This document shows, one piece after another, positions 3,818 through 25,990 of a stretch of 64,000 nucleotides of DNA; within the stretch, counting starts at the first letter, position 1; each line of letters begins with the position of its first letter. The notes beneath the pieces were generated by a model. The model searched no databases. It was not told where the DNA came from and saw nothing but the letters and a program-made list of their open reading frames with translations. Source of the DNA: Candidatus Fervidifonticultor secundus (GTDB lineage Bacteria > Sysuimicrobiota > Sysuimicrobiia > Sysuimicrobiales > Humicultoraceae); assembly GCA_031459385.1 (NCBI GenBank), contig JAVKIP010000016.1:1-64000 (forward strand), given 5' to 3'. Both the position numbers and the translations under genes were made by a program.

Positions 3818-5476
3818 ATGCGGCACCTTCGCGTGGCAGGACCCGTGGCGTGGAGCCTGGTCCTCATCCTGGGCATTCCCCTCGCGGCCGGGCCAGCTGG
3901 CGCACCGGAGGAGCGGCCGAAGTACGGCGGCTCGCTGGTGAAGACCGACATCTACGGCGATCCCCAGAACCTCGACCCCATGGTCGGCGTGCGCGTCGCC
4001 ACCATCATGGTGACCATGAACATCTACGACGGGCTGGTGAAGTTCGACCCGGTGCGCGGCCGCATCATCCCCGATATCGCCGAGCGGTGGACGACCAGCC
4101 CGGACGGCCGCATGTACACCTTCACGCTCCGCCGCGGCGTGCTCTTCCACAACGGGCGCGAGGTCACCGCCGAGGACTTCAAGTATTCGTTCGAACGCAT
4201 CGCCCATCCTGACAACGCCTCACCCTATCTGCCGCGGCTGGCCTTGCTGGGCGTCTCGGGAGTCGGCGAGTACCAGGCGAAGCGGGCCCGCGAGATCACC
4301 GGCCTCCGGGTGCGCGACAAGTACACCCTGGAGGTGGCGCTGGACAAGCCCAACTGCCTGTTCATCTACGATCTGGGGAGTGCCTGGGCGTCGGTCGTCC
4401 CCCGGGAGGAGGTCGAGCGGCTCGGCCGGGAGTTCGGCTCTCGCCCGGTGGGCTCCGGGCCGTTCGTGTTCGACTCCTGGGTGCGCGACAGCCAGGTGGT
4501 GCTCAGGAAGTTCGACAAGTACTGGCGGACCGACCGCTGGGGGAACAAGCTGCCCTACCTGGACCGCGTGACCTTCCGCGTCATCAAGGAGATGGCCACC
4601 ACCGAGGCCGAGTTCGAGGCCGGGAACCTCGACTTCTCGGTGATGCTCGACCCGCAGTACCGCAAGTACAAGCAGCACCCGGTCTACAAGAACCACATCA
4701 TCGAGGTCGCCGAGCTCTTCACCCGGCACATCGGCTTCAACCTGGACGCCCCGGGCCGGCCCTGGCAGGACAAGCGGGTGCGGCAGGCGATCAACCACGC
4801 CATCGACCGGGCGGCCATCGTCGAGAAGGTGCTGCATGGCAAGGCGTTCCCCGCCGTCGGGATTCTGCCGCCCACGATCGCCGGCCACAACCGCAACCTG
4901 CGGGGGTACGACTACAACGTCGACAAGGCGAAGCGCCTGCTGGCCGAGGCCGGGGTCGGCGGCGGCTTTGCGGCCAGGATCATCACCACCGACCATCCGG
5001 CCTGGGGCCTGCCGGCGGTGGAGGCCGTCATGGGCTACCTGGTCCAGGTGGGCATCCGGCTGGAGCCCGAGCTGATGGAAGGCGCCACCCTGATCCGGCG
5101 CATGCAGGAAGGGCAGTTCGAGTGGTTCATCTCGTCCACGGGGGGCGACACGCACCCGCTGGCGTACCTCCAGCGGCGGTTCCACTCGCGGCAGGCCGGG
5201 CCGCCCGGGAACTACGCCCGCTACCGGAACCGGACCGTCGACGACCTCCTGGACCGCGCGGCTGAGGATACGCGGTGCGGCGACGCGATGATCAGCCTGC
5301 TGCGGCAGGCCGAGGCCATCATCGTGGACGAGGCGCCCTGGTGGTTCTACAACTACAACAAGGCCGTCATCGCCCACCAGCCGTACGTGCGCGGTCTCAA
5401 GCCCGTGCCGACCGACATCGACTACCAGGACCTGGACGAGGTGTGGTTCGCCTCGCCCCCGCCGCGGCGGCGCTAG
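3818..5476 (+). CDS. Peptide/nickel ABC substrate-binding protein (family 5)
   Basis: Signal peptide; LDP...YDGLV, SPDGRMYTFTLRRGVLFHNG, PVGSGPF, VRQAINHAIDR. Confidence 0.92.
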   Translation: MRHLRVAGPVAWSLVLILGIPLAAGPAGAPEERPKYGGSLVKTDIYGDPQNLDPMVGVRVATIMVTMNIYDGLVKFDPVRGRIIPDIAERWTTSPDGRMYTFTLRRGVLFHNGREVTAEDFKYSFERIAHPDNASPYLPRLALLGVSGVGEYQAKRAREITGLRVRDKYTLEVALDKPNCLFIYDLGSAWASVVPREEVERLGREFGSRPVGSGPFVFDSWVRDSQVVLRKFDKYWRTDRWGNKLPYLDRVTFRVIKEMATTEAEFEAGNLDFSVMLDPQYRKYKQHPVYKNHIIEVAELFTRHIGFNLDAPGRPWQDKRVRQAINHAIDRAAIVEKVLHGKAFPAVGILPPTIAGHNRNLRGYDYNVDKAKRLLAEAGVGGGFAARIITTDHPAWGLPAVEAVMGYLVQVGIRLEPELMEGATLIRRMQEGQFEWFISSTGGDTHPLAYLQRRFHSRQAGPPGNYARYRNRTVDDLLDRAAEDTRCGDAMISLLRQAEAIIVDEAPWWFYNYNKAVIAHQPYVRGLKPVPTDIDYQDLDEVWFASPPPRRR

Positions 5477-23684: not shown

Positions 23685-24601
23685 GCCTGCGCTATCCGGG
23701 CAGCGTGCGCGTGGTCGAGGTCGGGCCGCGCGACGGCCTGCAGAACGAAGCCGGCGTCGTGCCGGTCGACGCCAAGGTGCGCTTCGTCGAGCTGCTGGCC
23801 GACGCGGGGCTGCCCGTCATCGAGGTCGGCGCGTTCGTGCGCCCCGACCGCGTGCCGCAGATGGCCGACACCGACCAGGTGCTCCGTCGGCTTGCCCCCC
23901 GCCCCCACACCACCTACGTCGTCCTGGTGCCCAACCGCCGCGGCCTGGAGCGAGCGATCGCAGCCGGCGCCCGCACCGTCGCCGTCTTCACGGCCGCCTC
24001 CGAGGCGTTCGCCCGGGCCAACATCGGCATGTCGGTGGACGCATCCCTCGACGTCTTCCGCGACGTCGTTCGGGAGGCGGCGGCGCAGGGGATCGGCGTC
24101 CGCGGCTACGTCTCCACGGCCTGGTGGTGCCCGTACTCGGGCCCCGTGGCCCCGGAGGCCGCGCGCCGGGTGGCCCTGGCCCTGGCCGAGATGGGGTGCG
24201 ACGAAGTGGGGCTCGGCGACACTATCGGCGCGGCCACGCCCGGCGAGGTGGCGCGGCTGCTCGAGGTCGTACTGCGCGACCTGCCCGCCGGGCGGCTGAC
24301 GGTGCACTTCCACGACACGCGCGGCACCGCCCTGGCCAACGTCCTGGCCGCGCTGGACGCCGGGGTGGCCACCGTGGACGCGTCCGCCGGCGGACTCGGC
24401 GGGTGCCCGTTCGCGCCCGGCGCGCTCGGCAACGTCGCCACCGAGGACTTGCTCTACATGCTGCACGGCATGGGCATCGCCACCGGCGTCGACCTGGAGG
24501 CCGTGCGGGCGGCGGCGCGCTACATCGAAGGCGTCCTGGGCCGGCCGCTGCCCGCGCGATACCTGCGGGCCGGGCCGCCGGGCCCGGCCGCGCCGCGCTA
24601 G
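23681..24601 (+). CDS. liuE: Hydroxymethylglutaryl-CoA lyase
   Basis: EVGPRDGLQNE, DTIG, HFHDTRG, GGLGGCPFAPGA..NVATED. Confidence 0.94.
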   Translation: MSLRYPGSVRVVEVGPRDGLQNEAGVVPVDAKVRFVELLADAGLPVIEVGAFVRPDRVPQMADTDQVLRRLAPRPHTTYVVLVPNRRGLERAIAAGARTVAVFTAASEAFARANIGMSVDASLDVFRDVVREAAAQGIGVRGYVSTAWWCPYSGPVAPEAARRVALALAEMGCDEVGLGDTIGAATPGEVARLLEVVLRDLPAGRLTVHFHDTRGTALANVLAALDAGVATVDASAGGLGGCPFAPGALGNVATEDLLYMLHGMGIATGVDLEAVRAAARYIEGVLGRPLPARYLRAGPPGPAAPR

Positions 24602-24831
24602 CAATCCGTGGGCGCACGCGCACCGTCGCCGCGCATGCCCCGGCGGTGGGGCGGTGCAGGCCGCAGCGTGTAGTCGGCCTTTCGGTACGTGGCCCGCACC
24701 CCGCAGTGGGGGCAGGTGTGGTAGTTCGCGGCGAGCGTGCCACGCTCGAACGATGCGCGGTCCATCCGCAGCCCGCTGTCGAAGGGCCGGCGGCAGGCCG
24801 TGCAGGAGACCCACAGGGCGAACCCGGCCAC
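24598..24831 (-). CDS. Small zinc-ribbon hypothetical protein (77 aa)
   Basis: CTAC...CPHC; 6 nt downstream of the co-oriented HTH-like gene. Confidence 0.65.
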   Translation of the reverse strand: MAGFALWVSCTACRRPFDSGLRMDRASFERGTLAANYHTCPHCGVRATYRKADYTLRPAPPHRRGMRGDGARAPTDC

Positions 24832-24837
24832 GGCCGA

Positions 24838-25197
24838 TCACGTCCCGGGCCGGGTGGCCCGGTAGCGTGCCACGTCCTCGGCGCGCCAGATGCGCCGGTG
24901 ACCCGATGCGAACAGGGGCGCGGGGAAGTCGGGGCGCGCGGCCACCTCGTCCAGGAAGCGCCGGGGCGGCAGGCCGAACTGCTCTGCCGCCTCCACCGCA
25001 CTCACGATGGGGATACCCTCGGCGACGGCGCGGCACACGGCGGCGATCAGCGAGTCGGAGGCCTGCGGGCGGCTGAGGACCAGGCGCAGCGCGGAGATGC
25101 CCCGCGGGTGGGCCTGCTTGATGAGGTTGCTGTAGTGCCGCAGGTCCTCGGTGTAGCCCCGCAGGTGAGTCAGGACCTTCGCGTCGTCTCCCAGCAT
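24838..25197 (-). CDS. Hypothetical protein with C-terminal AlpA/excisionase-like HTH
   Basis: IVSAVEAAEQFGL...PDFPAPL...RRIWRAEDV resembles the AlpA/Xis winged HTH; start ATG 25197 or GTG 25209. Confidence 0.6.
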   Translation of the reverse strand: MLGDDAKVLTHLRGYTEDLRHYSNLIKQAHPRGISALRLVLSRPQASDSLIAAVCRAVAEGIPIVSAVEAAEQFGLPPRRFLDEVAARPDFPAPLFASGHRRIWRAEDVARYRATRPGT

Positions 25198-25279: not shown

Positions 25280-25990
25280 ATGCCGTTACTCAACGACCAG
25301 GATGCGGCCTTCGTTCGCAAGCGGCTGCGCGAGGAACTGGAGCACGACGTGCGGCTCGTGTTCTTCGCGCCGAGCCTGGGCGGACTGGCGGTGCCCGGCG
25401 CGGACTGGGAGATGGCCGAGTACACCCGGCGGATCTTGCAAGAGTTTGCCGCGCTCTCGGAGCGCGTGCACCTGGAGGAGCACAGTCTGGCGGGCGAGCC
25501 CGAGCTGGCGCGGCAGTATGGCGTCGCGCGCACGCCGGCCACGCTCATCATCGGCGCCGAGGACTACGGCGTCCGCTTCTACGGCGCGCCCGCCGGCTAC
25601 GAGTTCGTGACCCTCCTGGAACTGGTGCTGGACGTCTCGAAGGGTCGCGCCCCGATCGCCGAGGCGACCCGCGCGGCCCTGCAGGCGCTGCCCGGCGACG
25701 TCCACCTCCAGGTCTTCGTCACGCCCACCTGACCCCACTGCCCTCGGGCGGCCAGGCTGGCCGCCGATCTCGCGATCGCGTCGCCGCGCGTCCGCGCCGA
25801 CATCGTGGAAGCCAGCGAGTTCCCCGACCTGGCCCAGCGCTACAACGTCTATGCCGTGCCCAAGACGGTCATCAACGACGTCCGCGAGGTGGTGGGCGCC
25901 GTGCCGGAGGCGCAGCTGGTCGCCGCGCTGGCGGAGGCCGTGCGGCCCGGGGCAGCGGCGTCTGCAGCGTCCGACGTGCCCTCTGCCTGA
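25280..25990 (+). CDS. Protein-disulfide oxidoreductase (AhpF-N/PDO double thioredoxin fold), probable selenoprotein (UPHC)
   Basis: ORFs 25280-25732 and 25805-25990 are in the same frame, separated only by TGA 25730-25732 in VFVTPT-U-PHCPRA. Also FYGAPAGYEF and EASEFPDLAQRYNVYAVPK. SD AGGAGG. Confidence 0.88.
25744..25767 (+). promoter_or_regulatory. Bacterial SECIS-like hairpin
   Basis: UC(G)GGCGGCCA-GGC-UGGCCGCCGA; stem starts 11 nt after UGA, with one bulged G and a G-rich apical loop. Confidence 0.7.

Follow-up and report, generated by a model that had tools for sequence, protein, structure and literature searches.

Protein disulfide oxidoreductases (PDOs) of archaea and Aquifex (P. furiosus 1a8l, P. 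horikoshii 1j08, A. aeolicus 2ywm/2ayt and A. pernix 2hls) are proteins of approximately 230 residues that consist of two thioredoxin folds. In 1a8l both active sites are cysteine pairs, CQYC in the first fold and CPYC in the second, and 1j08 is alike at the C-terminal site; the remaining chains (2ywm/2ayt and 2hls) presumably have cysteines at both sites as well. The same double thioredoxin fold is found in the N-terminal domain of AhpF (1zyn, 1hyu, 4o5q; E. faecalis 5h29/6il7). This domain carries a redox CxxC in its second fold only. In AhpF, which uses Cys and not Sec, the domain is joined in one chain to an FAD/NAD(P)H module of ~300 residues that resembles thioredoxin reductase.

A selenocysteine (Sec) form of the PDO family is present in the lists of prokaryotic selenoproteins, with members in Carboxydothermus hydrogenoformans and Symbiobacterium thermophilum (Zhang et al. 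2006, PMC1794560). The family is also listed in two reviews (PMC9312934, PMC13188914), in one of them as “predicted with high confidence”, and the later of the two adds Asgard archaea. Going by the review tables, the family has the status of a prediction that is not experimentally shown. The published members, as described in the parts of these papers that concern the family, have UxxC at the second active site and one Sec per protein. The lineage studied here is not named for the family in the same parts of the three papers, and a full-text literature search, in which few subscription journals are covered and papers were judged by title and abstract, yielded no other paper on the family in this lineage or on loss of the first active site.

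The locus described here was found in the window, i.e. the whole 64,000-nucleotide stretch of DNA that was analysed. Its predicted product has the same UxxC at the second active site and a single Sec, as in the published members, but belongs to a clade that has no first CxxC, and the host lineage is uncultured, with relatives labelled Armatimonadota by NCBI. The family itself is already known. What is added here is this lineage as a user of the family, with modest features at the level of the clade: a single redox centre, retention of the gene form throughout the order, and systematic truncation in public annotation.

The open reading frame and its internal TGA

The gene is complete and lies at positions 25280–25990 on the + strand (236 codons plus stop). 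The frame opens with an ATG at 25280, runs through 150 sense codons to a TGA at 25730–25732 (codon 151), continues for 85 sense codons and closes with a second TGA at 25988–25990. The internal TGA stands in the context VFVTPT-TGA-CCC-CAC-TGC. If read as Sec151, it is the first residue of a U-P-H-C motif (25730–25741).

Annotation programs do not read through this codon. An ORF lister splits the gene into a 150-aa open reading frame (25280–25732) and a 61-aa remnant (25805–25990), and in databases 91 of the 120 best relatives are called with a length of exactly 150 aa, under the names “hypothetical protein” or “AhpF”. An earlier note on this DNA, which described a gene split by one TGA at the first Cys of the second motif, is correct in coordinates and description on re-reading. 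The term “hidden selenoprotein” used there is apt for the annotation, given the 150-aa calls among the best relatives; it does not fit the family, which is a published prediction and carries the NCBIfam name PDO_seleno_TRX.

It is considered highly probable that the gene product is a cytoplasmic thiol-disulfide oxidoreductase of 236 residues, a homologue of PDOs and of the AhpF N-terminal domain, and that UGA151 is decoded as Sec.

Family and fold

The read-through protein, with Cys in place of residue 151, was used as the query against TIGR02187 (“PDO_seleno_TRX, protein disulfide oxidoreductase”, an equivalog model). The score of 226.6 bits is above the cut-off (185), with residues 6–219 aligned to model positions 2–208/209. 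Thus the protein is a stand-alone PDO of this family. With Pfam, the match is to Thioredoxin_3 over residues 142–217 only, a segment that covers the part behind the TGA.

By sequence, the nearest solved chains are the PDOs 1a8l (E 4.9e-34), 1j08 and 2ywm (E 5e-34 to 8e-33), and the AhpF N-terminal domains come next. An AlphaFold2 model, computed from a 14-row alignment, displays two thioredoxin folds (pLDDT 90.9, pTM 0.87). Foldseek aligns it with 1a8l at E 1.9e-22 and TM 0.84/0.88, and TM values against 1a8l, 2ywm and 1j08 are 0.81–0.89 over 218–234 columns. For the whole set of archaeal and Aquifex PDOs, the values are E 5e-34 to 1e-21 by sequence and TM 0.79–0.89 by fold. The conserved segment VFVTPTCPYCP forms the C-terminal site of the PDOs, and codon 151 falls on the column of the first CPYC cysteine of the solved structures. 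The C-P-x-C that a classical PDO has in its second fold is therefore present as U-P-H-C, with TGA replacing the first Cys codon. In the model, residue 151 is just ahead of a predicted helix at 154–167, the usual place of the active site in a thioredoxin fold.

The isolated N-terminal domains of AhpF are also close in fold (TM-to-target 0.86–0.90), and the arrangement of the window protein, with a single redox site in the second fold, is the one known for that domain. The protein is not an AhpF: scores for TIGR03140 (57.1 against 502.9 bits) and TIGR03143 (76.8 against 687.65) are far below the cut-offs, and there is no reductase module, the gene ending at residue 236 with a FabF gene behind it.

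Conservation of the TGA codon in the phylum

A six-frame search of 94 species genomes of the phylum (E <= 1e-20) gave a match in 71. At the column of codon 151, where the earlier note had proposed that homologues be compared for Cys or TGA, 68 matching genes were read: 56 have TGA (one per genome) and 12 have TGT or TGC. These are referred to below as Sec forms and Cys forms. Two fragments in G093 that have no active-site motif (L062 and L088) were left out of the counts, and 11 stop-free matches stand outside the Cys-form count. Two of the 56 TGA genomes (G016 and G024) are flagged unpublished, and no statement made here rests on either.

The 56 Sec-form genes have 43%–86% protein identity to the window gene, and the frame is open past the TGA in all of them, i.e. 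down to 43% identity. A selA gene is found above the cut-off in 50 of the 56 genomes; the six that have none are 59%–93% complete. Four genomes of genus g29 that have no selA show only stop-free matches, and the one of these that was read (G085) has TGT at the column.

Codons behind the TGA evolve under purifying selection. The median dN/dS is 0.23 for codons 152–220 and 0.31 for codons 1–150 (29 pairs, each against the window gene), which shows that the part behind the TGA is translated and constrained. Decay downstream of the TGA, suggested previously as a sign against read-through, is thus absent. A sequencing error and a pseudogene are ruled out on this basis.

A Cys paralogue with two CxxC motifs is present beside the Sec form in six genomes (G005, G006, G007, G038, G039 and G062). 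The window genome displays one family match only and hence has no back-up copy.

The Thr codon that precedes the TGA (25727–25729) is ACC in 52 of the 56 Sec forms. The Cys forms share this preference (10 of 12), and the codon therefore does not represent a context signal specific to Sec.

The hairpin behind the TGA

Bacterial SECIS elements (E. coli fdhF type, bSECIS consensus) are hairpins within the coding sequence, a short distance downstream of the UGA, that have G residues in a small apical loop. A hairpin with these properties is found in the window gene at 25747–25765 (+ strand). Its core is an 8-bp stem (25747–25754 paired with 25758–25765) closed by a GGC loop (25755–25757). The stem begins 14 nt behind the UGA, and the hairpin is encoded by Arg156-Ala-Ala-Arg(AGG)-Leu-Ala-Ala162, with the AGG codon of loop residue Arg159 at 25754–25756. 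The E. coli fdhF element has its own spacing from the UGA, a bulged U and a GGUC loop. The core in the window gene is a plain GC-rich 8-bp stem with a GGY triloop and no conserved bulge.

The fold energy of the single sequence is no better than that of shuffled sequences (z = 0.29), the DNA being GC-rich; support for the hairpin is consequently comparative and not energetic. Among the 56 Sec-form sequences (55 distinct), standard pairs occupy 94.8% of 440 cells, versus 19%–54% when the 3′ arm is slid by 1–3 columns, and none of 500 shuffles reaches the observed pairing or the observed covariation score. Compensatory changes, which had been named beforehand as a thing to look for, are present at three pairs. 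Pair 18–36 is CG in 22 sequences and GC in 16, and involves synonymous third positions of Arg156 and Ala162. Pair 19–35 is GC in 46 and CG in 4; the CG state occurs in a single genus only, where it entails two amino acid replacements (Ala to Pro and Ala to Gly). Pair 21–33 is GC in 50 and AU in 4. The other five stem pairs are invariant or nearly so, and these are uninformative by covariation alone.

The hairpin is a property of the Sec forms. In the same register, 7–8 of the 8 pairs are formed in 51 of the 56 Sec forms, and 5 or fewer in all 12 Cys forms. In four more sequences, from family f4, the bottom of the stem is replaced by a different, bulged pairing. The loop codon AGG is found in 55 of the 56 Sec forms but in only 1 of the 12 Cys forms. 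AGG accounts for 4.7% of 41,766 Arg codons in the high-GC3 long frames of the genome, so the remark in the earlier note that this codon is uncommon holds for the genome at large.

Choice among synonymous codons is also restricted here. In the 30 closest orthologues, the synonymous-codon entropy at codons 157–161 is 0, 0, 0, 0.23 and 0.21 bits, with a mean of 1.26 at the 54 other conserved four- or six-fold columns used for comparison, one of which is also 0. The hairpin is thus maintained as RNA in the face of synonymous drift. Part of the nucleotide conservation could be due to the conserved AARLAA peptide; the Cys forms, in which similar peptides are specified by different codons, speak against this.

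The earlier note placed the start of the hairpin 11 nt after the UGA and included a bulged G and two lowest pairs, 25744–25767 and 25745–25766. The comparison does not sustain this part: the conserved stem starts at 14 nt, and the two positions are paired in only 19 and 15, respectively, of the 55 distinct orthologues. A possible ninth pair, 25746–25766, was likewise rejected (paired in only 12 of 29 distinct rows). A scan of positions 25600–25900 against Rfam, with E-values up to 10, gave no SECIS family, and its three hits are at chance level (lncRNA and snoRNA models, 8–14 bits).

Selenocysteine machinery and the use of TGA as a stop codon

The window genome consists of 59 contigs (97.6% complete, 5.51% contamination). 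All four of the genes selA, selB, selC and selD, which the first reading of this DNA had named as the genes to search for, were found in it. On contig C12, selA (155655–157010, 548.9 bits) is directly beside selB (153751–155619, 367.6 bits), and the tRNA-SeC with anticodon tca (151486–151577) is ~2 kb from selB on the same contig. The selD gene (locus L009) is on the – strand of contig C1 at 104038–104961 (388.2 bits). Because none of these genes is on the contig of the window and the bin is slightly contaminated, a four-contig genome of the same genus (G001) was also examined; it carries the PDO orthologue and selA on one contig.

The selD gene has an in-frame TGA of its own (VACAG-TGA-ASKLPP); the hairpin downstream of it looks unlike that of the PDO gene.

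TGA is not reassigned genome-wide. It closes 1079 of the 1833 stop-to-stop frames of 500 codons or more, and selA and selB have no internal stops. The terminal stops of the 56 Sec-form orthologues are TGA in 28, TAA in 15 and TAG in 13. The window gene itself ends with a TGA (25988–25990, + strand) that has no SECIS behind it, and TGA is therefore still an ordinary stop in this organism.

Another in-frame TGA was seen outside the window, in a peroxiredoxin-like (AhpC-TSA) frame on contig C36 of the same genome (G000:C36, ~4583–5330, + strand), which reads FGSFT-TGA-PYC. The UxxC motif makes it probable that this frame, too, encodes a selenoprotein, one of the “Prx-like thiol:disulfide oxidoreductase” type known from the literature. 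It is located directly behind an ordinary peroxiredoxin gene.

Alternative readings of the TGA

If the internal TGA were a true stop, the product would be a single thioredoxin fold of 150 residues with no redox Cys, and the 3′ part would be decaying or would form a separate 61-aa open reading frame (25805–25990). This is how the ORF lister and the gene callers present the locus, and UGA decoding as Sec does compete with termination. The 69 codons downstream, however, are constrained as strongly as those upstream, the frame is open in every one of the orthologues, and the thioredoxin domain responsible for the family match is downstream of the TGA; the 150-aa piece alone has no CxxC at all. A true stop is consequently regarded as very improbable. 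Even less credit is given to the insertion of one of the standard residues Trp, Cys or Gly, through a genome-wide change of code or near-cognate suppression. Any inserted residue would restore a full-length family member, but TGA is the stop codon of most long frames in the genome and of half of the orthologues of this very gene, selA and selB are free of internal stops, and the full Sec machinery is present. Nor would this reading account for a TGA placed exactly on the redox Cys with a hairpin behind it that is specific to Sec forms.

Sec insertion in bacteria is incomplete and depends on selenium. It can therefore be imagined that the locus yields two products, namely the full-length Sec enzyme in the presence of selenium and an inert first fold of 150 residues in its absence, with the UGA acting as a selenium-dependent switch. 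This would add to the reading as a Sec enzyme and not replace it. The Cys paralogue with two CxxC in the six genomes mentioned above could serve as a back-up, but the window genome, with its single family match, has none, and it is hard to see what a free first fold that lacks a redox centre would be used for. A switch of this type is thought unlikely, though less so than either of the readings in which no Sec is inserted. Decoding of UGA151 as Sec is the interpretation followed below.

Loss of the first active site

At the place of the N-terminal CxxC, the window protein has W43-E-M-A (25406–25417, + strand). In alignments, W43–A46 correspond to C35-Q-Y-C38 of P. furiosus PDO 1a8l, and in the structural model W43 is the first residue of helix 43–57, the first helix of thioredoxin fold 1. 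The CxxC that a classical two-site PDO has in its first fold is thus lacking, and the reading WEMA given in the earlier note is supported by this alignment. The protein differs from 1a8l at both sites, having WEMA for CQYC and UPHC for CPYC.

The change is widespread among the Sec forms. CxxC is absent from the first site in 46 of the 56, where the first position is W, A, Y, F, V, G or S. The 10 that keep the site all belong to family f4 (CRYC, CLYC, CRSC, CQTC or CETC). Among the 12 Cys forms, the first CxxC is present in 11.

A maximum likelihood tree was computed from 137 distinct proteins (145 rows, with 8 identical duplicates merged) by a quick LG+G4 search, with midpoint rooting only and with the first-site columns kept in. 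The window protein falls in a clade of 49 rows, all of them Sec forms with no first site (SH-aLRT 95). This clade is joined to six Sec forms that keep the first site, with an SH-aLRT of 84, a value that is not strong. The most economical reading is a single loss of the first site in an ancestor that already used Sec. Since the tree is a quick, midpoint-rooted one that includes the columns of the trait, and since the joining node has an SH-aLRT of 84, this order of events is a reading and not a result. A database protein with 67% identity (P0003) has CPHC together with AEMA, and represents a Cys form inside or near the group that has no first site.

Proposed function, partners and gene neighbourhood

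According to the proposed mechanism, SelB carrying Sec-tRNA(Sec) (anticodon UCA) would bind the conserved hairpin (8 bp, GGY loop), whose stem starts 14 nt downstream of the UGA, and would deliver Sec at codon 151 in place of termination. U151-P-H-C154 would then be the only redox pair of the protein, cycling between a selenolate/thiol and a selenenylsulfide. The first fold, with WEMA, may have been retained as a structural scaffold or docking domain, as suggested by analogy with the AhpF N-terminal domain. By analogy with the PDO/thioredoxin-reductase and AhpF/AhpC systems, the electron source would most likely be an NAD(P)H-dependent flavoprotein similar to thioredoxin reductase, and the acceptors may be protein disulfides, peroxiredoxins, or both.

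Candidates for such partners are present in the genome. There is one gene for a flavoprotein similar to thioredoxin reductase (C58:124479–125399), which scores 167.4 bits against the TIGR01292 cut-off of 343.45, and no thioredoxin reductase that reaches this cut-off was found in the 97.6%-complete genome. The disulfide reductase that feeds the PDO may be an unusual one. Seven AhpC/TSA-family matches exceed the Pfam cut-off. Neither the flavoprotein gene nor any of the AhpC/TSA genes is near the PDO gene.

Two genes on the – strand are divergent from the PDO gene. The gene for a 119-aa protein with no Pfam family (24838–25197) keeps its position in 26 of 29 related loci, and that for a 77-aa protein with weak zinc-ribbon hits (24598–24831) in 25 of 29. 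A FabF gene is found downstream in 15 of the 29 loci and an HMG-CoA-lyase-like gene upstream in 8. A search for redox partners among the conserved neighbours in these 29 loci suggested no reductase or substrate.

Sec forms outside the phylum

In named public genomes, 80 loci were examined; TGA is present at the column in 28 of them, and 18 of these are outside the lineage of the window. Nine of the 18 carry the label Chloroflexota or one of its classes, seven Acidobacteriota/Terriglobia, one Bacillota and one Methylomirabilota.

Five Sec forms from Acidobacteriota (L115, L133, L145, L147 and L149, with UPHC) and a Cys relative (L152, with CPHC) show the first CxxC replaced by LEYG or LELG. As they form a separate clade in the tree, this points to a loss of the first site in the Acidobacteriota Sec forms that is independent of the loss in the window clade. 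These five genes display no GGCCAGG hairpin in the register used here, and their SECIS must therefore differ or be located elsewhere.

In five other Sec-form loci, from Bacillota, Chloroflexota and Terriglobia (L109, L113, L120, L142 and L164), the apical sequence GGCCAGGYUGGCC, which also occurs in Sec forms of the window lineage, or a one-base variant of it is found at the same distance from the TGA. This hints that the Sec allele and its SECIS share an origin or were transferred together.

Discussion

The analysis leads to an annotation fix within a known selenoprotein family; no new mechanism is involved. The gene has been mis-called systematically, with the effect that a conserved redox enzyme, present in 56 of the 94 species genomes, is absent from the annotated proteomes of an uncultured lineage. 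In addition, a well-supported SECIS is supplied for a selenoprotein family that has so far been a predicted one.

In the clade to which the window protein belongs, a single U-x-x-C centre must account for the whole of the redox activity. With the two-centre sister forms and the Cys paralogues beside it, this clade offers a ready comparison for enzymology.

An ordered evolutionary path is suggested tentatively, and is considered possible but not probable. Sec would have been gained first, as is seen in the f4 sisters, which have UPHC and an intact CxxC. The first CxxC would then have been lost once and never regained in at least 49 species, the selenenylsulfide centre having made the other redox site dispensable. 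In this path the Acidobacteriota loss would be an independent event, and the Sec allele with its SECIS would have moved between phyla. If the path is true, the family represents a natural series, from two Cys sites through Sec plus a Cys site to Sec only, that could be used for asking what a thioredoxin-fold enzyme gains from Sec.
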